DNA of 64,000 bases, from IMG/VR virus record IMGVR_UViG_2551306257_000001, positions 5,988 to 69,987 of that record; one strand, given 5' to 3'. The notes beneath the pieces were generated by a model that was given only the letters and a program-made list of their open reading frames with translations, was not told the DNA's origin and did no database searches. Positions 32,789-64,000 of this stretch are shown in pieces. The position numbers and the translations under genes were made by a program. Source of the stretch: a virus. Lineage: Duplodnaviria; Caudoviricetes. Every line of letters starts with the position of its first letter. Position 1 is the stretch's first letter.

Positions 32789-32941
32789 CTATCTGGTTTC
32801 CTTGTGAACAGTGTATTGTCCACAGTGTTTACAAAATTTATTTACTTCTAACCGTGTTGGCTTGGGATTGCTCGAAAGGCTGATTGAATAGTTTCGAGAA
32901 CCACAAACAGTACAGGCTAGGCTTGCTTTTTTTAGTGCCAT
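32789..32941 (-). CDS. rpmG: 50S ribosomal protein L33 (Zn-ribbon form)
   Basis: Hand-translated 50 aa [39 protein letters not shown]. Confidence 0.95.
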
Positions 32942-32960
32942 AAAGCCCTCCATCCTTTTC

Positions 32961-32989
32961 ATTCTACCATGTTTTTATGGATTTGACAA
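32961..32989 (-). promoter_or_regulatory. sigma-A promoter of rpmG-secE
   Basis: TTGTCA-17-TAGAAT with TG extension. Confidence 0.75.
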
Positions 32990-33076
32990 CTCTCCAAACC
33001 AAGACGTATGCGGTAGAATTTTTTAGAATGCCTTGTACTGCATTTTTTGAGGAGAACTAATTACCGAGATGCAAAG

Positions 33077-33103
33077 AAAAAACTGAACAATTTCTTGCTC
33101 AGC
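33077..33103 (-). terminator. Conditional (attenuator) terminator
   Basis: GCTGAGCAA-GAAA-TTGTTCAGT followed by TTTTT on the - strand. Confidence 0.7.
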
Positions 33104-33139
33104 CCTTGACAGTGATACCTTTATCCTGTATCATATATT

Positions 33140-33211
33140 AGAGACTGAGTAAGAAGTAGAGGTTCTTACTCGGTAAGTGGTACGCTGTAGGAGGCGTGCC
33201 GCTTTTTTTTT
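33140..33211 (+). ncRNA. Two-hairpin counter-transcribed sRNA
   Basis: TTGACA(33106)-17-TATCAT(33129); stems 33144-33174 and 33175-33204; T9 tail. Confidence 0.7.
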
Positions 33212-33230
33212 ATTCGATTAAGTTAGTTAG

Positions 33231-33259
33231 ATTATAGCACACTTAGGCACACTGTGCAA
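33231..33259 (-). promoter_or_regulatory. Outward-reading sigma-A promoter at the ICE end
   Basis: TTGCAC-17-TATAAT with TG extension. Confidence 0.75.
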
Positions 33260-33349
33260 GTGCCAATCTGAATTTGTACGCAACACAAAAAGCCTTTCGC
33301 TGGAAAGGTTATTTATATATATCTTGTTATATATCTTTTTATCTACTTG

Positions 33350-34678
33350 TCAGAGATTTTTCTTTCCTTCTCTATTGTATAGGTGATGGAGAGTATACTC
33401 TCGTTCAACCTGGTTAAGTTTTTGCTTGATTGTCGCAGCTGTAATAGATTCTAGTTCAGCGATCTTTTCATACTCTTCACGCCAGGAGCCGAAAAATAAA
33501 TCTCTGAGTTGTTCCTCGTGGTTGAGGACTATAATACGACTCATTGTCTCTGCTCCCAAAACGGTCCAATACATGCCACGTTTCTTCATCCTATACGTGA
33601 TTTTACGATGTTGTGACTCCATAATACCTATCCCTGCATGAGTAAAGCCTCTCAGCTCGGCTGGCTTAGTGTATTGAAAATTATTAAGAAGCTTCCTCTT
33701 GAACTTCTCGAACTCCTCCATTTCTTCTTCAGTCAATACTAACGATTCTGTAGTGTCTAACACTGTACGTAGTTTGCCTTTATCATGTTGTTTTATCGCC
33801 TGAAAAGCTTTGTCTAGCAACTCTTCTGAGTAGGGCTTGAAGAAGGATTTTAGCTTCTGGTTGACATGATACTCATCCCAAAAATGTTCGTGACGTTTAA
33901 TTTTCAAAGCCTTGGCAATCTCTTTGAAAACATAAGGGGTATAGCCATGACCACCGTCAGAATTGGTAATCAGCAGGGTATTGTCTGTTATCTCGTAAGT
34001 GTTATAAAGATAGTCTAGTACCTGTTCTCTGGCCAATCGATTATCTAGACCAACAAATTCCTTTTTATCTTTCAGCTCAAATCGGTTGCTCCCCACTTTC
34101 TGACTGCCAGTATGAACTACGAAATGAGATAAATCATAGTGTCGGTTATCCGTGTCTATGTCACGTGCCTTGACCATGACGCCGTCCCCCTCAATGTATA
34201 TCACATCGACCTTCCGCTTTTCTATCTCCTCAGTCTCTTTGTAAAAACGATAGACTTCACGTTCTGTCAGCAACTCGTTGCAGAGTTTGACAGCTTTAAC
34301 AACAATAGGTTTTGTGATAATGATATGGTAGGTCATCTGAATAACCTGGGTAACCTTCTCATAGGGCATCATTGTCGATAATTTAGCAATTTGATACATG
34401 AATTCCCAGGAGAAACGTGTATTCTTTGTTAATCCCAATTTCTCATCAACTGGTACACACCACTTATCACCCTTCTTCCATCGACGACGTCGAAAAGTAA
34501 ATTCACCAAAAGTAAAAGCGACTGTCCGCTCCATTGAGTGTATACAAGTATAACCCCTAGCCTTCATAACAGGAACCATTTCTTCATCATACTTGGCCAC
34601 AAAATCATAAAAATATAGTGCATTCTCATCAAACAATTGTTCTTTTAGCACTCGCTCATCAAAAATAGTGGTTAACAT
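33350..34678 (-). CDS. ISLre2/Mutator-like DDE transposase
   Basis: RTVAFTFGEFTFRRRRW, YIEGDGV, NSDGGHGY, FWDEYH, GIMESQHR, RMKKRGMYW. Confidence 0.93.
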   Translation of the reverse strand: MLTTIFDERVLKEQLFDENALYFYDFVAKYDEEMVPVMKARGYTCIHSMERTVAFTFGEFTFRRRRWKKGDKWCVPVDEKLGLTKNTRFSWEFMYQIAKLSTMMPYEKVTQVIQMTYHIIITKPIVVKAVKLCNELLTEREVYRFYKETEEIEKRKVDVIYIEGDGVMVKARDIDTDNRHYDLSHFVVHTGSQKVGSNRFELKDKKEFVGLDNRLAREQVLDYLYNTYEITDNTLLITNSDGGHGYTPYVFKEIAKALKIKRHEHFWDEYHVNQKLKSFFKPYSEELLDKAFQAIKQHDKGKLRTVLDTTESLVLTEEEMEEFEKFKRKLLNNFQYTKPAELRGFTHAGIGIMESQHRKITYRMKKRGMYWTVLGAETMSRIIVLNHEEQLRDLFFGSWREEYEKIAELESITAATIKQKLNQVEREYTLHHLYNREGKKNL

Positions 34679-35125: not shown

Positions 35126-35398
35126 CTATTCTCCTGATAATTCTTGTTGAAGTTTCTCCCATTCCTGGATAATCAATTTTTCCAAGTAATCAGATGCTGA
35201 CCTCGCTCTATTGTGAACTACTAGGTCTTCTAGCTTGCTGTGACGTACGTCATGGTGTAGCGAAAAGACAAAACGCCCTTTTCTATCATAGCTATCAGGT
35301 GCTTTTCGATTAGCTCCTGCACGTGGAGCTGGCGTTCGTTCTTTTGGTGGTTCTTTCTCAAAGCTTTCTTTTAATTGAGCAAAACGATTATTTGGCAT
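35126..35398 (-). CDS. Putative centromere-binding partner of ParA (ParG/RHH-like)
   Basis: Coupled to parA; flexible N-terminus, then RFVFSL..SASDYLEKLI. Confidence 0.6.
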   Translation of the reverse strand: MPNNRFAQLKESFEKEPPKERTPAPRAGANRKAPDSYDRKGRFVFSLHHDVRHSKLEDLVVHNRARSASDYLEKLIIQEWEKLQQELSGE

Positions 35399-36216
35399 TA
35401 TGCAACTTCTCCTTCCAGTACTCTTAAGATATTTTGATAGACATACTCTATATTATCATAAAATTTTTGGTGTGCTTGTTTTTGTTTGTCTGTCATTTGT
35501 TCACGCTGCTCAAACACACTCTGGTTAATGACCAAGCTCTTAGCGACCAACTCTTTCTTCTGAATAGAACCCAGGTACGCCTCATCTTCTTGAATAACAT
35601 CCAAGAATTGGTTACAAGTATCTGTTACATTGTTTCCGTAATACTCGATTTTATTGCCAATAATATAAGGCTCTGCTTTGACATAACTCTTCTTGGTGAT
35701 AACCTCAATTGCCTCACTCTTAATCCGATCTACAAACCTTTTGAGAGCAAGCCAGGCACGAAAACCATTCGTTGAAGCATCAGTTACTCCTAAGACGATA
35801 TCAGAAACAGCAATAAAGTTAGCTGTCACAAGACTTTCGTCATTGTGGGTATCGATCAAGATAATATCAAACTGTTCTGCTAGCTCATCGTAATGCTCAC
35901 TAAACCACATGAACAGCTGAAGGTATTTATTATTTCTACTGGATAGGTCTAATTGTTCATCCGTTAAGCGTTCATCCCCACGAATGAGACTAAGATTATC
36001 GTTGATGCGACAAATTTCATACTCGCCAGATGTAAAAATATCATAGATAGTCTTCTCACTGGTTACGTCGAAGGAATGCGTTAAATTACATTCTCTTGCG
36101 CCATCAATCAACAGGGTCCGTTTATTTTTAATACGTGACAACCAATCACCCTGGTTGTAGGTCTGGCTGCTTTTTCCACCGCCACCCTTGTCTAGGTTTG
36201 TTGTTTGAATTTTCAT
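35398..36216 (-). CDS. parA: ParA-family ATPase
   Basis: Deviant Walker A KGGGGKS, LLIDG, IILIDT. Confidence 0.9.
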   Translation of the reverse strand: MKIQTTNLDKGGGGKSSQTYNQGDWLSRIKNKRTLLIDGARECNLTHSFDVTSEKTIYDIFTSGEYEICRINDNLSLIRGDERLTDEQLDLSSRNNKYLQLFMWFSEHYDELAEQFDIILIDTHNDESLVTANFIAVSDIVLGVTDASTNGFRAWLALKRFVDRIKSEAIEVITKKSYVKAEPYIIGNKIEYYGNNVTDTCNQFLDVIQEDEAYLGSIQKKELVAKSLVINQSVFEQREQMTDKQKQAHQKFYDNIEYVYQNILRVLEGEVA

Positions 36217-59896: not shown

Positions 59897-59926
59897 AGAA
59901 GCCCTCCTTATTTTTATTGACATGAT

Positions 59927-59968
59927 TAGTGTAAGGGATAAATAACATTCCTGCGTTAAGAGGACAAA
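59927..59968 (-). promoter_or_regulatory. 42-bp ICE promoter motif, copy 4
   Basis: TTTGTCCTCTTAACGCAGGAATGTTATTTATCCCTTACACTA. Confidence 0.85.
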
Positions 59969-59986
59969 TCGCAGGAAAAATATTTT

Positions 59987-61819
59987 TCAGCTGAAGAGAG
60001 AATCCATTTCTCCTTCAATATCTAGTTTGATCTGCCTCAAGTCTTTGCGGTGTTGGCCATCTGGTGCCTCCCCTTCCACCCATAAATGAACATTGTAAGT
60101 TTGTTTACTCCTATCCAACAATAGAATCTTAGCCGAGATCGGCGGCAATACTTTTTGTTTAATCAAATGCTCTAAGGGCCGTGCACCATTCTTTACATCG
60201 GTTCCCACGTCCGACAGATACTGAATCAAACTTGGTTCATAAGAGAGCGTTACATTTTGTTGGCTCAACCTAGCTTCAATCTCAGATAAATTTTTCTCTG
60301 CGATTTCTTCAATAACATCACGCTCCAGGAGATTAAAGATGAGTTTATTTTCAATCCGATTCAAAAACTCTGGTCTAAATTCATTTTGAAGCTCGCTGAC
60401 CATAGATTTCTCAAACTGAAGCCACTCACGATCGGATAAATTTTTGAAATTGCCTTTTAATTCCCACTTATTGATAATTTTCTTATCACCACTATTTGTG
60501 GTCATAATGACAATTGTGTTTTTGAAGCTAACCAGACGACCTGTACTGTCTGTCAAGCGCCCATCAGCAAGCACCTGGAGAAATAGGTCTATGACTTCAC
60601 CGTGCGCTTTTTCAAGCTCATCCAGTAGCAAAACACAATAAGGTTTCTGCTTGACTCCTTCCGTCAGCTGCCCTTTTGTTTTCGTAGCACGATTTCCGAT
60701 TAGTTTGGCCACATCTTCTTTCTGTTTATACTCAGACATATCAAAACGAATCATGGCATCTTCATCATCAAAAAGTGCTTCTGCCAAGGCTTTGGCTAAC
60801 TCTGTCTTCCCAACTCCAGTCGCACCAAGGAAGAGGAACGAGGAGATTGGTCTGTTTTCATCTTGTAAGCCTGCTTGAGCAATGGTCACAGCATCAACAA
60901 TTGCATCAATCGCTTCTTCCTGACCCTTGACTCGTCTCATCAATTTTTCCTTGAGACCATCTAGCCGCTCCTGGTCTCCTTTTAAAATTGTCGTAACAGG
61001 AATACCAGCTTTATCCTTCAAGACTTGGGCTATATCTACTTCTGTTACACTCTCTTTTCCTTCAACTGAAGCAATAGTTGCTGCTTCATCGATCAAATCA
61101 AAGGCTTTATCTGGTAAAAAACGATCTGTAATATAGCGAACAGACAAACGGACTGCTTGTCGAACTGCTTCTGAAGAAATTTTTAGCCCATGAAATGTTT
61201 CATAAACGCCTTTTGCCTGTTCGATAATCGCTATCGCTTGCGGAATTGTCGGTTCCTCTACCATAACTGGCTGGACCCGACGTTCCAATGCTCTATCTGT
61301 TTCGATATAGTCATGGAACTCATCTAAGGTAGTTGCACCGACCAACTGAATGTCGCCACGTGCCAAGACTGGCTTGATAACATTTCCTGCATCAAGAGCC
61401 TGACCGTCTTGGCCACCTGCACCAACAATAGTATGAAATTCATCTACAAAGAGGAGATTCTGTCCTCGTGTAGCAACCATCTCCTCAATGATTTTCTTGA
61501 ACTTGGCTATGAAGCCACCATCTTCTTCACTCATTAAGCTAGACAGTTCCAAAGAGCGTACCGTTAAACCCTTTAAGGCAGATGGAACCTGACCACGCAA
61601 GATAGCAAGAGTTAAGCCTTCGACAATAGCTGTCTTCCCGACTCCAGCCTCTCCAACTAAGACAGGATTGTTTTTCGTTCGCCTGAGAAGGGAAACGATG
61701 ACGGCCTGAACCTCTTTATCTCGTCCATAAACCTGGTAATCAGCCACCTTCTTTGAGACTTTGTCTGACAAATTGTCAGTGTACTTATCAAGATAGGGTG
61801 TCTTCACTTCGTCTTCCAC
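59987..61819 (-). CDS. ClpA/B-like double AAA+ ATPase lacking the N-terminal domain
   Basis: GEAGVGKT / FVDEFH and GATGVGKT / LLDELEKAH; FRPEFLNR; GARPL. Confidence 0.93.
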   Translation of the reverse strand: MEDEVKTPYLDKYTDNLSDKVSKKVADYQVYGRDKEVQAVIVSLLRRTKNNPVLVGEAGVGKTAIVEGLTLAILRGQVPSALKGLTVRSLELSSLMSEEDGGFIAKFKKIIEEMVATRGQNLLFVDEFHTIVGAGGQDGQALDAGNVIKPVLARGDIQLVGATTLDEFHDYIETDRALERRVQPVMVEEPTIPQAIAIIEQAKGVYETFHGLKISSEAVRQAVRLSVRYITDRFLPDKAFDLIDEAATIASVEGKESVTEVDIAQVLKDKAGIPVTTILKGDQERLDGLKEKLMRRVKGQEEAIDAIVDAVTIAQAGLQDENRPISSFLFLGATGVGKTELAKALAEALFDDEDAMIRFDMSEYKQKEDVAKLIGNRATKTKGQLTEGVKQKPYCVLLLDELEKAHGEVIDLFLQVLADGRLTDSTGRLVSFKNTIVIMTTNSGDKKIINKWELKGNFKNLSDREWLQFEKSMVSELQNEFRPEFLNRIENKLIFNLLERDVIEEIAEKNLSEIEARLSQQNVTLSYEPSLIQYLSDVGTDVKNGARPLEHLIKQKVLPPISAKILLLDRSKQTYNVHLWVEGEAPDGQHRKDLRQIKLDIEGEMDSLFS

Positions 61820-61820
61820 T

Positions 61821-63569
61821 TCAATCTCTCCTTTCTTTTGCGGCCAAAATTTGATGCGTTAATTTTTCCTTGATAGCATCCACAAATTCACGTGGGTTTA
61901 TCTCTCCTTCTCCAATTTGAGATAGAAACGTTTCCCATCCGCCTGTTGTTTCAGGACTGGCAAACTCATTATCATAGAGGTAATGAATCAAGAGGTAAGC
62001 CTGATTCGTTGGGAATAATTGCCCTGTCTTCTTGTCCTTTTTGATATAACCTCGATCTTGAATGGTTTTCAACATGGTTGCCCTAGTTGCCTGTGTACCT
62101 AAGCCGTACTTGGGTAGGATTTCACTAATCAATTGGCTTTCTGTAATCCTCTTTGGTGGCTTTGTCACTCCCTCAAGGATATTGACCTTTGTCTCAAACT
62201 GATCTCCTATACGATAATCTGGTAGCTCTACATCCCCTTTTAGTTTTTGCTGGCTAAGATCGGCCCAACCTGGGTCAATCATTTGACGGCCTTTTGTTTT
62301 GAAAACCATCCCCTGGTTTTCCACTTCAACCGTCGTTGTTAGATAGCGACAATCAGCAGCAAACATCAGAAGGGTTCTGCGAACAACAGCTTCATAGATT
62401 AGCCTTTCTTCTGGCTTCAGGGTTACTAGGTTCGGGATATTCTCAGTTGGAATAAGAGCATAGTGACTTGTTTTGGCTACTTTCTTAGGATTAACATAAT
62501 CTTCCCTTGGTTCCATATTTACTGGTTCAAAAGGACAATTAATCGCCTCTTGATAACTCTTCAGGTAATTTCTTAAATAGCTAAACTCTTCCTCATCGAT
62601 ATATCGAGTATCTGTTCTAGGATAAGATAAGTATTTTTTCAAATAGAGACTTTCTATTATGCTTTCTGTTTTAGTTGGTTCAAATCCCCACTGTCTAGCC
62701 GCTAATCCCTGAATATCGGATAGATTAAATAGATGTGGTGCTGCTCTCTGTTTCTCTTCTGTTTCAACTGAAGAAACGGTAGAAACTGTGCTTAGTTCTC
62801 GTGACGTTGTAAGGATAAGTTCACTATCCGAGTACTTATCCTTATTTGTGAAACTGATCTCCGTTTCCTTATCTTGCAATTGTAATTTCCAATAGGTTTC
62901 TGGCTGGAAATTTTGAATCGCTATATCGTTCTCACAGATTAGCCGTACTCCAGGAGTTTGAACACGGCCGACAGACAAACTATTTCCCTTCCCTTTTGGA
63001 AGTCGCCCCTTACTTTGTAATTCTAAAGTAACTAGAGGAGACAAATTCATGCCTACTAGCCAATCTGACTGTGCACGTGCTTCAGCTTCCAGATAGTAGT
63101 TATAGGTTTCCATAGGTTCTCTTAAATTTTGAAAGGCTTTCTGAAGGCCTCGTATAGTCAACGAGTTGGTCCATAGGCGCTTAGTTACTTTATCTTTCCC
63201 TTCTGGAATGTGGGACAAGATTGAATAGGCAATCCGCTCCCCTTCCCTATCAGAGTCTGTACCGATAATCACCTGACTCGCTGCTGTTACTTCCTGATAG
63301 ATCTGTTTGAAAGTATCTTTAGATATTTTGTCCTGCTTTAAGGTCTGCTTAAAGGAAACATCGACCAATGGTAGTTTATCCAAATCCCAGTTATCCTTGG
63401 GTAGCCCATATTCAAACAAATGCCCCTCTGCTGCAATGATATGCACCTCATCTGAAAAATAGGGTGTTTGTTTAATAATGTGTACCTTTCCTTTTTTACT
63501 AGCCTTGCCCAAACACTCTGCATAAGCCACTGCCTGTGTTTCTTTCTCAGCTAGAATCACTGTTACCAT
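61821..63569 (-). CDS. Type IA DNA topoisomerase (TopB-like)
   Basis: ILAEK, GTDSDREGE, SVGRVQTP, SYPRTD, HYALIPT, GLGTQATRA. Confidence 0.94.
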   Translation of the reverse strand: MVTVILAEKETQAVAYAECLGKASKKGKVHIIKQTPYFSDEVHIIAAEGHLFEYGLPKDNWDLDKLPLVDVSFKQTLKQDKISKDTFKQIYQEVTAASQVIIGTDSDREGERIAYSILSHIPEGKDKVTKRLWTNSLTIRGLQKAFQNLREPMETYNYYLEAEARAQSDWLVGMNLSPLVTLELQSKGRLPKGKGNSLSVGRVQTPGVRLICENDIAIQNFQPETYWKLQLQDKETEISFTNKDKYSDSELILTTSRELSTVSTVSSVETEEKQRAAPHLFNLSDIQGLAARQWGFEPTKTESIIESLYLKKYLSYPRTDTRYIDEEEFSYLRNYLKSYQEAINCPFEPVNMEPREDYVNPKKVAKTSHYALIPTENIPNLVTLKPEERLIYEAVVRRTLLMFAADCRYLTTTVEVENQGMVFKTKGRQMIDPGWADLSQQKLKGDVELPDYRIGDQFETKVNILEGVTKPPKRITESQLISEILPKYGLGTQATRATMLKTIQDRGYIKKDKKTGQLFPTNQAYLLIHYLYDNEFASPETTGGWETFLSQIGEGEINPREFVDAIKEKLTHQILAAKERRD

Positions 63570-63596
63570 ATCTTATCTCCTCTCTCTTGATAGCTT

Positions 63597-63638
63597 CATC
63601 ATAAGAGATAATGATAATTTGTGCGTTAAGAGGACACT
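63597..63638 (-). promoter_or_regulatory. 42-bp ICE promoter motif, copy 5
   Basis: AGTGTCCTCTTAACGCACAAATTATCATTATCTCTTATGATG. Confidence 0.85.
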
Positions 63639-63700
63639 TAATTCTTTTTATTAAAAACAACATAAATTGTTATATAACTTTTTACGCTATTTCTTATATA

Positions 63701-63734
63701 CAATCAGGCACCCTCGAAAGAGAGTGCCTGATTG
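63701..63734. terminator. Hairpin terminator
   Basis: CAATCAGGCAC...GTGCCTGATTG. Confidence 0.7.
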
Positions 63735-63735
63735 A

Positions 63736-63930
63736 TTATCGACTAGGCCCTTTCACTTGGGCTTTAGGAAAATTTGGTGCTTGTCCTCTCATTTTCCCAA
63801 CCTGATAGGGCTTGGTGCGAGTTTCAACCTGCTTCAGCATCGTAGAAACTGTTTTATGAATTCGTTTCAATGAATCTGCCAACTGCTTATCGTCTAAGAC
63901 TGTCAAATTCTTTGTCCAACTTGCTATATA
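63736..63930 (-). CDS. 3' end of an ArdC/LtrC-like gene
   Basis: Hand-translated YIASWTKNLTVLDDKQLADSLKRIHKT..KGPSR*. Confidence 0.5.
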   Translation of the reverse strand, partial: YIASWTKNLTVLDDKQLADSLKRIHKTVSTMLKQVETRTKPYQVGKMRGQAPNFPKAQVKGPSR

Positions 63931-64000
63931 GACAATATGTAAAGACCCCCAGTTGAGAATTCGTGGATTTACCTGTACACTAGAATAAAAAAAACAATCA

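Follow-up and report, generated by a model that had tools for sequence, protein, structure and literature searches.

A predicted countertranscript attenuator at the right end of a TnGBS-family conjugative transposon and its possible coupling of rep-operon transcription to circularisation

How an integrated TnGBS-type ICE silences its plasmid replicon, and then activates it after excision, is the question raised by a short non-coding segment in the 64,000-nt stretch of viral-record DNA analysed here (the window). TnGBS-type elements are common in streptococci, and published accounts report that they replicate as circles prior to integration (PMC4701971, PMC3942029). Using computation, we describe the anatomy, conservation, covariation, strand asymmetry and gene order of this segment, together with a deposited circular record. 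We consider it probable that the right end of the ICE is a pT181-like countertranscript attenuator that couples transcription of the rep operon to circularisation.

The window carries the right end of a streptococcal conjugative transposon with a DDE transposase of the TnGBS family. Specifically, the last ICE gene (33350..34678, minus strand) reads toward the right end and encodes a DDE transposase of TnGBS/ISLre2 type, matching Pfam UPF0236 (PF06782, E = 2.7e-21) and the NCBIfam model transpos_ISLre2 (NF033529, 227.9 bits, cut-off 200). A UPF0236/ISLre2 transposase at the right end (p-MULT 3 / ISLre2 type) is one mark of the family; plasmid-type replication and partition genes are another and are also found, including a ParA-like AAA_31 gene of plasmid partition type at 35398-36216 of the window. 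A terminator scan places a terminator-like hairpin 3′ of the transposase gene (33293..33308, minus strand). The non-coding right end spans 33006-33349 (344 nt).

An earlier note on this DNA, made from the sequence alone, described the right end as far as 33077; loss of homology in other copies and an empty site put the ICE end at 33006 and not near 33077. This is the point at which homology stops in 51 other aligned right-end copies, with unrelated flanks beyond it. The empty site appears in an RNA-seq run of an ICE-free S. suis strain (X13), in which 389 reads cross it and diverge from the window at 33007; the reads cover rpmG and stop at 33007 because the strain lacks the ICE. The contig RNA runs (X1-X3) hold nothing within the ICE part, which has no bearing on expression either way, and one contig of X1 ends at 33007. 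The right terminal inverted repeat (33006..33028; from its outer to its inner end, GTATGCGGTAGAATTTTTTAGAA) is placed by the homology stop and by conservation, 20/23 positions being invariant among the 52 right ends of the window's clade (clade A). Next to it lies a probable 9-bp target copy, AACCAAGAC (32997..33005), judged from related copies; the second target copy would flank the left end, which lies outside the contig. Near-identical or related elements have both terminal repeats and 9-bp duplications at both ends, and the family is marked by terminal inverted repeats ending in C and by target duplications of 8-9 bp.

The ICE end lies 16 nt upstream of the −35 element (TTGTCA at 32989) of the host rpmG promoter, which a promoter scan gives as TTGTCA-17-TAGAAT (32961..32989, minus strand). 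Related copies have the same spacing, in agreement with the rule described for the family, by which insertion is oriented and falls 15-17 bp ahead of the −35 element of a sigma-A promoter (PMC3942029). The genes next to the ICE end are rpmG and secE, an order that fits the read-through into rpmG-secE proposed earlier for the integrated state. The orientation toward the host promoter, fixed in the aligned right ends, and the 15-17 bp rule would also suit a reading in which the outward promoter (Pout), terminator and sRNA described below set ICE-derived transcription into the host gene and have no role in the circle. Such an insulator or tuner would block entry, or replace upstream transcription severed by the insertion. 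Consistent with this, minus-strand reads of the ICE-free strain, at a depth of 380-500, cross the insertion point upstream of the rpmG promoter, so that ICE insertion cuts off upstream transcription; furthermore, a TnGBS2 insertion without significant change in downstream gene transcription is on record (PMC4701971). However, insulation requires a terminator alone and makes superfluous a strong Pout, a dedicated sRNA and a pre-emptor found in 32/32 leaders; the layout fits plasmid rep control, and rep genes come after the circle junction. We regard pure insulation as unlikely. The insulator and attenuator roles are compatible, and insulation may thus be the integrated-state side of the same device.

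The scans returned 8 promoter sites, compared with 3.2 +/- 1.9 in shuffles, and 6 terminators, compared with 1.2 +/- 1.1. An outward minus-strand promoter at 33259-33231 is present where it had been placed, both in the promoter scan and by eye. The scan reads Pout as TGCACA-16-TATAAT with TG (33258-33231), and by eye it is TTGCAC (33259-33254), a 17-nt spacer and a TG-extended TATAAT (33236-33231). Its −35 element is of CTTGC type in 52/52 clade-A right ends, with a −10 element of TG(T/C)TATAAT in 50 and TGTTATACT in 2; four clade-D rows have, by eye, TTGACA, a 16-nt spacer and TATAAT. In one element (L007), Pout has itself been a target: a second ICE copy lies 16 nt from its −35 element, on the upstream side, matching the family's target rule for sigma-A promoters as given in PMC3942029.

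The leader RNA is predicted to start near 33224, judging from the −10 element, and to run to the U-run of the terminator T1 (33077..33224, minus strand); 33225-33070 folds at −38.7 kcal/mol (z = −3.4). No minus-strand ORF of at least 30 aa lies between the promoter and the end, in accordance with the earlier observation of no convincing ORF before the element end. The sole ATG frame in the outward RNA has 11 codons and, by eye, differs in length between clades. A type I toxin-antitoxin system was rejected because this frame is so short, lacks a ribosome-binding site and varies in length among clades.

A plus-strand, two-hairpin sRNA with its own promoter and terminator had been proposed at 33140-33211, and scans and folding find it as placed. 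Its promoter, TTGACA, a 17-nt spacer and TATCAT (33106..33134, plus strand; 11/12 consensus matches in the scan), sits within the leader region, between the pre-emptor and T1. The predicted antisense sRNA of ~71 nt (33141..33211, plus strand) is composed of hairpin H1 (33144-33174), hairpin H2 (33175-33204), which the terminator scan also reports on the plus strand, and a U-run (33203-33211). The segment 33140-33213 folds into the two hairpins and the U-run at −35 kcal/mol (z = −6.5), a value equalled by 0/200 shuffles.

For comparison across clades, we used 32 distinct right ends, whose transposases are 50-100% identical to that of the window. An antisense RNA complementary to the leader, with its own promoter and terminator, is predicted in 32/32, and all 32 have a TTGAC(A/T/G/C) −35 element, a 17-18 nt spacer and a −10 hexamer. 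Both Pout and the sRNA promoter are retained across all clades. The two hairpins and the U-run occur in all 14 further distinct sRNA versions, from diverged clades with transposases 50-65% identical. Within clade A, the sRNA −35 element is invariant at 6/6 positions in 52/52 right ends, and the H1 arms are invariant at 24/24 positions, while the H1 loop is invariant at 1/7 and exists in 14 versions. Across clades, 94.5% of H1 cells are paired and both sides have changed in 5/12 pairs, a score reached by 0/500 shuffles. H2 shows compensatory change at 5/9 pairs within clade A, and its sequence is wholly different between clades with the hairpin retained; H2 and T1, whose MAFFT columns are out of register across clades, were judged there by per-sequence folds. 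In addition, folding favours the sRNA strand over its reverse complement in 32/32 (−28.5 to −35.7 versus −18.9 to −26.1 kcal/mol).

The sRNA is probably already on record, as an RNA of SQ340 type, rather than new. In S. agalactiae NEM316, SQ340 (Pichon et al. 2012) is described as a 78-nt sRNA with a rho-independent terminator and a RACE-mapped 5′ end, intergenic, adjoining the TnGBS2 transposase gene gbs1118 and convergent with it (PMC3326304). SQ340 and the window sRNA agree in position, orientation and size, a comparison of descriptions rather than of sequences. A search model derived solely from ICE sRNAs (R1) reaches 77.7 bits on the window sequence and matches in 20/151 sampled Streptococcus genomes; 17/20 fetched sites are convergent with the 3′ end of a TnGBS-type transposase gene, 120-239 nt apart. 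In one genome, a 76-nt R1 match arranged as SQ340 lies at 1,168,140, and the NEM316 coordinate of SQ340 is 1,163,702 (PMC3326304). Rfam holds no family for the sRNA or the leader, the window region giving chance matches only (E = 1.7 or worse), and blastn of 33006-33349 against 72,556 plasmid records returned no match. Our literature search found an sRNA beside a TnGBS transposase only in PMC3326304; Brochet 2009 and Guerillot 2013 lay outside its scope, and these may place the TnGBS rep promoter elsewhere.

The account in PMC3326304 catalogues SQ340 as an intergenic sRNA with its target unassigned, and proposes for it no function, attenuator or link to circularisation. It is thus compatible with an sRNA that acts elsewhere, its targets being other mRNAs of the ICE or the host (in trans) or transcripts that read through from the transposase gene, or with a ~150-nt outward RNA that is itself a stable regulator, the alternative fold being incidental. 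The H1 stem, invariant in 52/52, likewise suggests sequence-specific recognition, beyond structure alone. Against such a role, the T1 5′ arm tracks H1 between clades with pairing kept, and the outward RNA has no coding potential, its 11-codon frame not being conserved in length. We judge action in trans to be quite unlikely, and favour the leader as the partner of the sRNA.

The leader terminator noted earlier at 33103-33077 forms in the leader fold. T1 (33077..33105, minus strand) has a stem (33102-33095 / 33090-33083) extended by G-U pairs, a GAAA loop and a T6 run (33082-33077); this hairpin, CTGAGCAA/GAAA/TTGTTCAG with T6 (33102-33077, minus strand), is absent from the list of the simple terminator scan. 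Variants of the 5′ arm preserve pairing (CTGAGCAA in 48, CTGGGCAA in 3 and CTGAACAA in 1 of the 52 right ends). A T1 hairpin with a U-rich tail was parsed in 32/32 distinct leaders, the tail being weaker, UUUCGUG or UUGUGUAU, in five clade-D rows.

The pre-emptor (33141..33155, minus strand) comprises the 3′ arm of H1′ (the copy of H1 in the leader) and the bases that follow, and pairs with the T1 5′ arm. This alternative pairing, first seen as 11 of 12 positions, is real and longer, joining leader 33155-33141 to 33107-33092. When the window leader is cut before the T1 3′ arm, its lowest-energy fold has 11 pairs between the pre-emptor and the T1 5′ arm, and the duplex is worth −12.0 kcal/mol versus −7.0 for shuffles, 10/300 of which are as good. 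Likewise, all 32 distinct leaders so cut have 8-16 such pairs in the lowest-energy fold, with duplexes of −10.9 to −17.1 kcal/mol versus shuffle means of −5.4 to −10.3 (0-24/300 shuffles equal), and the pairing is present in 7/7 clade representatives. The T1 5′ arm varies in step with H1 across clades, and pre-emptor pairing is thereby preserved. The lowest-energy fold of the window's full-length leader is H1′ with T1, the terminated form, even without the sRNA; the outcome between pre-emptor and T1 in this leader is a matter of kinetics. The layout of Pout, sRNA, T1 and pre-emptor is found, with different sequences and compensatory changes, in 32/32 distinct right ends.

Three copies of one 12-nt motif lie within 33092-33176, and the segment could in principle work as DNA: as a single-strand origin, as part of an origin, or as sites for the transposase or the partition protein, with the CTGAG..AAGAA repeats as the protein sites. 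A box in the right end and a hairpin in the left end resemble subterminal repeats, and the interval between transposase and repeat in Mycoplasma ICEs is described as resembling a plasmid single-strand origin (PMC3942029). Yet two full promoters with correct spacing are present in all clades, U-runs follow the hairpins on the fitting strand, H2 is still a hairpin after replacement of its sequence, and the spacing differs between the two CTGAG palindromes. Furthermore, G-U pairs are strand-specific: T1 has 1-4 of them, formed on the outward strand only, and the folds of H1 and H2 favour the sRNA strand, that of T1 the outward strand. A DNA-level element is therefore, in our estimate, very improbable compared with an RNA device. 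A TAGCG-like loop resembles a single-strand origin motif, and the H2 loop is TAGCG-like in many copies; the idea of a single-strand origin drawn from it was dropped, as the loop is not conserved.

The earlier note likened the architecture to that of pT181 and pIP501. The pT181 layout is matched point by point, but the RNAIII and CopR features of Inc18 are not found. The pT181 mechanism involves an antisense RNA (RNAI), the repC leader, stem-loop IV and a pre-emptor (PMC5703833). The ICE follows pT181 as described there: the transcript of the sense promoter begins with a leader that is not translated, and a convergent promoter located within this leader gives a short antisense RNA of two hairpins that carries its own terminator. 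Beyond the antisense target lies an intrinsic terminator, and the target itself includes a pre-emptor that pairs with the terminator 5′ arm. In pT181, a rolling-circle plasmid, the attenuator lies directly before the rep start codon, whereas that of the ICE stands at the end of a 45-50 kb transposon and is followed by the ICE end and rpmG when integrated, and by the joined repeats and a further hairpin, T2, in the circle; no rep start codon follows it immediately. Unlike in pT181, the rep genes of the ICE are of theta type (RepA_N, or RepR-like with PriCT_1) and are reached only across the circle junction. R1 also gives a match on the antisense strand of a RepD-like_N/Rep_trans rep leader of pT181-family type, weak at 27.3 bits (E = 9.7e-4 for one genome, with 151 genomes searched). 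This leader folds into the same two-hairpin countertranscript, pre-emptor and attenuator, and Rfam finds no family in it at E below 0.2. Sequence kinship of the ICE sRNA and the pT181-family RNA is weakly indicated and not proven.

In pIP501, RNAIII and CopR control repR by attenuation and convergent transcription (PMC4981023). The ICE resembles Inc18 in its convergent promoters and in antisense-RNA attenuation, which for the ICE is a prediction and in Inc18 acts in the rep leader. It differs from Inc18 in that the gene upstream of Pout encodes the transposase, with no Cop-like repressor gene and no small ORF between, in that its sRNA is 71 nt versus 136 for RNAIII, and in that four ORFs and the junction separate the attenuator from the repR-like gene. 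Searched with R1, an Inc18 leader yields no match (9.4 bits at best, E = 0.25), and homology to the Inc18 leader was rejected. A similar logic operates in the Gram-positive conjugative element pCF10, whose long conjugation operon is gated by the prgQ/Anti-Q pair, an attenuator that has convergent promoters and is driven by a countertranscript. Unlike the ICE device, the pCF10 system is under pheromone control by way of PrgX, and no transposon ends divide it.

The gene order and strand of the ICE fit circularisation-dependent transcription of the Tn916 type, in which transfer genes are promoterless when integrated and are transcribed from the other end after circularisation (PMC5812530). Tn916 uses a tyrosine recombinase and read-through from Porf7/Pxis under a tetracycline-sensitive cascade, whereas in the ICE the DDE transposase gene is followed by a dedicated Pout with an antisense-RNA attenuator, and outward transcription would first reach genes for replication and maintenance. 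An IS-ancestor origin of the right-end device was also considered. A Ligilactobacillus plasmid carries an ISLre2-family IS in which 188 nt separate the transposase gene from the end; this interval contains a TG-extended −10-like site and motifs of loose similarity, and R1 has no match in this IS or in a second one.

After excision, the leader had been expected to join a gene at the opposite end, probably the replicase. The deposited circular form NZ_CP046625.1 has the order transposase, Pout, sRNA, T1, IR-R/IR-L, T2, 55-aa ORF and RepA_N, the last being the second ORF past the junction. In the window's clade, left-end genes are on the same strand as outward transcription, and an Inc18 RepR-like gene is fifth past the junction, preceded by four ORFs. 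Its product, with PriCT_1, is encoded where the same ICE continues in another S. suis genome, and is 57-59% identical to RepR-type proteins of plasmids, one of these plasmids being typed Inc18. A replicase does follow the junction, although it is not the first gene in the window's clade; in a TnGBS2-like element, the first 2.4 kb contain only ORFs of at most 144 aa. The far end also has the expected same-strand, inward genes with no conserved promoter before them: in the interval from IR-L to the first ORF, the two left ends scanned have no promoter-like site of the inward strand in common. Weak 9-of-12 promoter matches occur at these left ends, and internal promoters in the region are not excluded.

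Overall, every prediction of the earlier note that computation can address was borne out, and its interpretation is supported in part: the replicase is not first in this clade, and segments had been missed, namely ~70 nt of ICE past T1, the terminal repeat and hairpin T2, all between Pout and the first left-end gene. T2, the second hairpin of terminator type, lies close to the left end of related elements, on the inner side. By comparison, a GTTCTCCTC box (33049..33057, minus strand) is complementary to the T2 5′ arm of those left ends; the box is GTTCTCCT in 50/52 right ends and GTTCTTCT in 2/52. With the terminal repeats, which by folding would make a long hairpin in the junction transcript, and T2 intervening between T1 and the first left-end gene, read-through may be slight. 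T2 forms in the fold of a left-end-only transcript, and the NZ_CP046625.1 junction transcript folds as one long hairpin with T2 not formed (−40.5 kcal/mol, z = −5.1). In the long hairpin, the T2 3′ arm remains paired beside the U-run, and termination may consequently persist; junction-specific antitermination of T2 was for this reason set aside as a separate claim.

We infer from this organisation that both promoters are active, that termination is driven by the sRNA and that some transcripts read on into the left-end genes. Pout, which looks strong and constitutive, would fire outward, and its leader would contain H1′, the pre-emptor (the 3′ arm of H1′ and the next few bases) and the intrinsic terminator T1. 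The convergent promoter between pre-emptor and T1 would yield the 71-nt sRNA, whose full length is complementary to the leader's 5′ part. When the sRNA is absent, the pre-emptor would pair with the emerging T1 5′ arm and transcription would continue; with the sRNA on H1′ and the pre-emptor, T1 would form and transcription would end. In the integrated ICE, nothing lies downstream but 70 nt of the element, its terminal repeat and the targeted host genes (rpmG-secE-nusG), and the device would mainly limit read-out. In the circle, the outward transcript would cross the joined terminal repeats into the same-strand left-end operon, which holds the replication initiator, as RepA_N in the second ORF (one clade) or as the Inc18 RepR-like fifth gene (the window's clade). 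As the initiator genes follow Pout only across the junction, the replicon would be transcribed only in the circle. The sRNA, whose dose would follow ICE copy number, would exert negative feedback on the replicon.

A fuller reading can be offered only tentatively, as possible but not favoured: a copy-control attenuator, perhaps of pT181 ancestry, has been split from its replicase by the transposon ends. The replicon and the long same-strand operon behind it would then be licensed in the excised circle only, and the sRNA dose would count every ICE copy, the integrated one included. Two further layers are conceivable. First, cross-repression between co-resident elements, or against incoming ones, may owe its specificity to the hypervariable H1 loop (14 versions, all on the same invariant stem), much as loops determine incompatibility in plasmids. 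Second, T2 may be refolded by the right-end box together with the joined repeats, in which case a transcript would have to span the junction to pass it.

Because promoter and rep genes are adjacent only in the circle, a split control region would need no extra regulator, and the module is compact. If the coupling proposed here is true, it would give a function to the orphan sRNA SQ340 and would extend countertranscript attenuation from small plasmids to ICEs that move as DDE transposons. It would also predict RNA-based immunity between related elements.

The 69,987-base record that contains the window is filed as viral, probably because of a prophage-like gene block on the minus strand from window position 1 to ~27,000. 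Host genes, among them nusG, secE and rpmG, fill the ~6 kb between this block and the ICE, which itself is an array of minus-strand genes running from 33006 to the window end. The first gene of the array encodes a 442-aa transposase of the UPF0236/ISLre2 type, which, according to excerpts of PMC3942029 and PMC4701971, is the enzyme of the TnGBS streptococcal ICEs, a family whose insertions lie 15–17 bp upstream of sigma-A promoters. Among genomes, Streptococcus suis gives the closest match, and the transposase is 100% identical in one fetched locus (L002).

Relatives of the transposase were confirmed at 93 loci, of which the best 80 were retained and fetched. A 410-nt minus-strand query reaching from the transposase stop to rpmG matches the relatives' loci with 73–98% identity, and in most rows the match stops at query base 344 (window 33006) or a few bases off. 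The right-end alignment comprises the window and 51 copies from 50 loci; the remaining 30 loci comprise 25 with diverged or interrupted copies, which were analysed separately, and 5 that stop short of the right end. The aligned copies share a conserved ...TTCTAAAAAATTCTACCGCATAC at the terminus; the flanks beyond it are unrelated and, among the alignment rows listed, mostly carry a −35-like hexamer after ~16 nt and then a −10. In the window, 16 nt lie between the ICE end and the rpmG −35 (TTGTCA at 32989). RNA-seq of an ICE-free S. suis strain provides 1,487 mapped reads spanning 32800–33009 and zero beyond, and 389 reads share a loose end from 33007 on, corresponding to the empty site. The empty-site reads and the homology stop thus place the ICE end at 33006. 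T1, the terminator that the earlier note had described in the outward leader, is thus not at the element edge: ~70 nt of ICE follow T1, including a 23-nt terminal repeat (33028–33006). In the same ICE-free strain, minus-strand read depth is 380–500 upstream of the predicted rpmG promoter, across the insertion point (32947–33009), indicating that the ICE severs rpmG-secE-nusG from upstream transcription.

The region between 33349 and 33006 contains a compact set of elements. On the minus strand, a terminator-like hairpin (33308–33293) follows the transposase stop, and the predicted outward promoter Pout (33259–33231) consists of TTGCAC, a 17-nt spacer and a TG-extended TATAAT. The leader, with a predicted start at ~33224, contains in order an A-run, a weak hairpin H2′, a hairpin H1′, the sRNA promoter in reverse and the T1 hairpin with its T6 (33105–33077), beyond which lies a GTTCTCCTC box (33057–33049). 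On the plus strand, a predicted TTGACA-17-TATCAT promoter (33106–33134) precedes a predicted antisense sRNA of ~71 nt (33141–33211), which is composed of two perfect hairpins (H1 and H2, the counterparts of H1′ and H2′) and a U9 tail, with a folding energy of −35 kcal/mol (z = −6.5). The sRNA itself has probably been reported before: SQ340, as described in an excerpt of PMC3326304, is a 78-nt terminator-bearing sRNA that converges with the TnGBS2 transposase; its 5′ end was mapped by RACE, and no function was assigned to it. In a complete genome, a 33.6-kb element shows the arrangement of SQ340 and the TnGBS2 transposase at a coordinate near that in NEM316, a likeness of position. In S. caprae (L007:5323–5932), exactly 16 nt separate a complete right end from the −35 of the outward promoter belonging to a second, partial one, a spacing which indicates that a TnGBS-type element used Pout as insertion target, as with host sigma-A promoters. 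This natural experiment favours Pout being a genuine promoter.

Comparison of the 52 right ends of the window's clade (clade A) reveals that the H1 arms are invariant at 24/24 positions, the sRNA −35 at 6/6 and the terminal repeat at 20/23, while the 16-nt host flank has no invariant position. The Pout −10 is TG(T/C)TATAAT in 50/52 right ends and TGTTATACT in the other two. The H1 stem (window 33144–33176 and 33092–33103) is the same in 52/52, in contrast to the 7-nt loop, which is invariant at 1/7 positions and occurs in 14 versions; this is what one would expect if recognition between related elements owed its specificity to the loop. Clades whose transposases are only 50–65% identical have the parts in the same order but in different letters, and each of the 14 additional distinct sRNA versions folds as two hairpins and a U-run. 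In an all-clade alignment of 32 sequences, 94.5% of H1 cells are paired, compared with 27–45% in slid controls, and 5/12 pairs are altered on both sides; none of 500 shuffles reached the H1 pairing score, a count that is not a probability owing to the kinship of the sequences. H2 is swapped wholesale between clades, but in every case its stem has 9 or more pairs and sits directly against the U-run.

The sRNA strand folds better than its reverse complement by 4.5–15 kcal/mol in 32/32 distinct sequences, and an invariant U-G pair of H1 would become a C-A mismatch if read on the opposite strand. T1 contains 1–4 G-U pairs that are possible on the outward strand only, and its A to G and G to A variants preserve pairing. 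The strand-specific pairs and the fold advantage of the sRNA strand favour RNA structure on both strands over an element that acts purely at the DNA level. Two natural variants depart from this layout: L042:5336–5610 is without the stretch from just past the pre-emptor (leader 33155–33141, inside the sRNA target) to the T1 U-run and consequently has neither sRNA promoter nor T1, and L010:5336–7498 carries a ~1.8-kb insert between H1 and T1.

The leader is predicted to have an alternative fold. The earlier note had described a pairing at 11 of 12 positions between the T1 5′ arm and an upstream segment; our leader folds recover it as part of a longer pairing, in which the H1′ 3′ arm and the next bases (33155–33141) pair with 33107–33092, which lies partly inside the T1 5′ arm and partly immediately ahead of it. 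Leaders were folded after cutting just before the T1 3′ arm, corresponding to the RNA present once polymerase has made the 5′ arm. In 7/7 clade representatives, the lowest-energy fold of the cut leader contains the pre-emptor pairing and loses H1′. The pairing is likewise part of the lowest-energy fold in 32/32 distinct cut leaders (8–16 pairs; duplex −10.9 to −17.1 kcal/mol), compared with averages of −5.4 to −10.3 kcal/mol for shuffled T1 5′ arms, of which 0–24 of 300 are equally good. Furthermore, the T1 5′ arm covaries with H1 across clades, for example GAGTAAGAA occurring with GAGCAAGAA and GAGTAACACAA with GAGCATACAA. In full-length leaders, the terminated and read-through folds are near-equal in energy: the window's version has its minimum in the terminated form, the commonest oral-streptococcal version in the read-through form. 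The same pre-emptor logic is described for pT181 in an excerpt of PMC5703833, and the pre-emptor here lies inside the sRNA target.

The window contig ends before the left end, and left ends were taken from other genomes: ten distinct ones, eight from related elements together with those of a circular record and the 33.6-kb element. In two complete genomes, 9-bp target duplications locate the left ends and give element lengths of 44.5 and 48.4 kb. The ICE of another S. suis genome overlaps with window 59907–63931 at 99.4–100% identity and extends ~20 kb further. In 10/10 left ends, the left repeat is followed 45–75 nt inside by an inward-read hairpin with a U-run (T2). In the 9/9 traced further, inward-strand ORFs follow T2, on the strand that Pout would read once the ends are joined. 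Promoter scans of two left ends, from the repeat to the first ORF, found no recurring site. The circular record, a 41.6-kb S. ruminicola 'plasmid' (NZ_CP046625.1; L101), is a TnGBS-like element in joined form, with the order transposase, Pout, sRNA, T1, right repeat, 3 nt, left repeat, T2, 55-aa ORF and RepA_N initiator. It also has a 9-of-12 promoter-like match across the junction, with TAGACA in the right repeat and TAGAGT in the left. In the window's clade, the first left-end ORFs are a small variable ORF and 164-aa and 160-aa proteins of no family, followed by a DUF2786/DUF7168 protein and a 503-aa PriCT_1 protein, which is 57–59% identical to enterococcal plasmid replicases, one annotated RepR and one on a 5.8-kb Inc18-typed plasmid. 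The co-oriented rep gene that the earlier note had anticipated beyond the junction is thus found directly in the clade of the S. ruminicola record and in fifth position in the window's clade.

A transcript from Pout would meet T2 before these genes. The junction transcript of NZ_CP046625.1 is predicted to form one long hairpin absorbing T2, whereas its left-end-only transcript is predicted to form T2, and the T2 5′ arm is complementary to the right-end box (window 33057–33049) in four different sequence versions. Such complementarity would be equally expected of subterminal transposase sites, so we retain circle-specific passage of T2 as a possibility only. Terminator-like hairpins inside the repeat occur in L083:2941–3020, L099:19796–19720 (minus strand), L101:5884–5966 and L125:2326–2250 (minus strand); the left-end hairpins may serve as subterminal transposase sites, may block transcription reading in from outside, or may do both.

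R1, a covariance model built from the 52 clade-A sRNAs only, detects all clades, on the sRNA strand, and matches 23 places in 20/151 sampled Streptococcus genomes. Twenty places were fetched; of the other three, two share their contigs with right ends L002 and L008, and the third comes from a short contig. Seventeen of the 20 are convergent with the 3′ end of a TnGBS-type transposase 120–239 nt away. Among the three without, one place is riddled with other IS genes, and another has no transposase within 2 kb upstream, the stretch analysed. The last place (27.3 bits), identical in sequence to enterococcal plasmid segments, is antisense to the leader of a replication gene with RepD-like_N/Rep_trans domains, which an excerpt of PMC5703833 gives as the domain type of the pT181 family; a chloramphenicol acetyltransferase gene lies beside it. 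With E = 9.7e-4 for a single genome in a search of 151, this match is weak, and it is notable for its position; the leader is predicted to fold into a two-hairpin countertranscript, pre-emptor and attenuator in the order of the ICE right end. In the Streptococcus contig (L124:1040–3259), these rep and acetyltransferase genes stand beside a topoisomerase gene, and the rep leader is identical to the enterococcal plasmid segments. Rfam named no family for the ICE sRNA and leader or for the Rep_trans leader. An ISLre2-family IS on a Ligilactobacillus plasmid (L102:2167–2354), inserted 16 nt upstream of a TTGACA-17-TATGAT promoter, has 188 nt from transposase stop to IS end, in which a TG-extended −10-like site occurs along with motifs of loose similarity to the ICE leader; R1 found no match in this IS end.

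The device would work like the attenuation of pT181 and pIP501, but a defining feature of those systems, an attenuator directly before rep, is absent in the ICE right end, and no homology of the ICE sRNA to Inc18 RNA was found. Expression coupled to circularisation is already known for Tn916, according to an excerpt of PMC5812530. We found no description of the attenuator, its split from the replicase by transposon ends or the hypervariable loop in the literature searched. The main weaknesses of the proposed mechanism are the uncertain kinetics of the pre-emptor against H1′, and the obstacles that the junction hairpin and T2 would form on the way from T1 to the first gene. Judged by its sequence comparisons, the right-end device is real and conserved; we moderately favour its reading as a countertranscript attenuator, and with less confidence the full chain by which such an attenuator would control rep.
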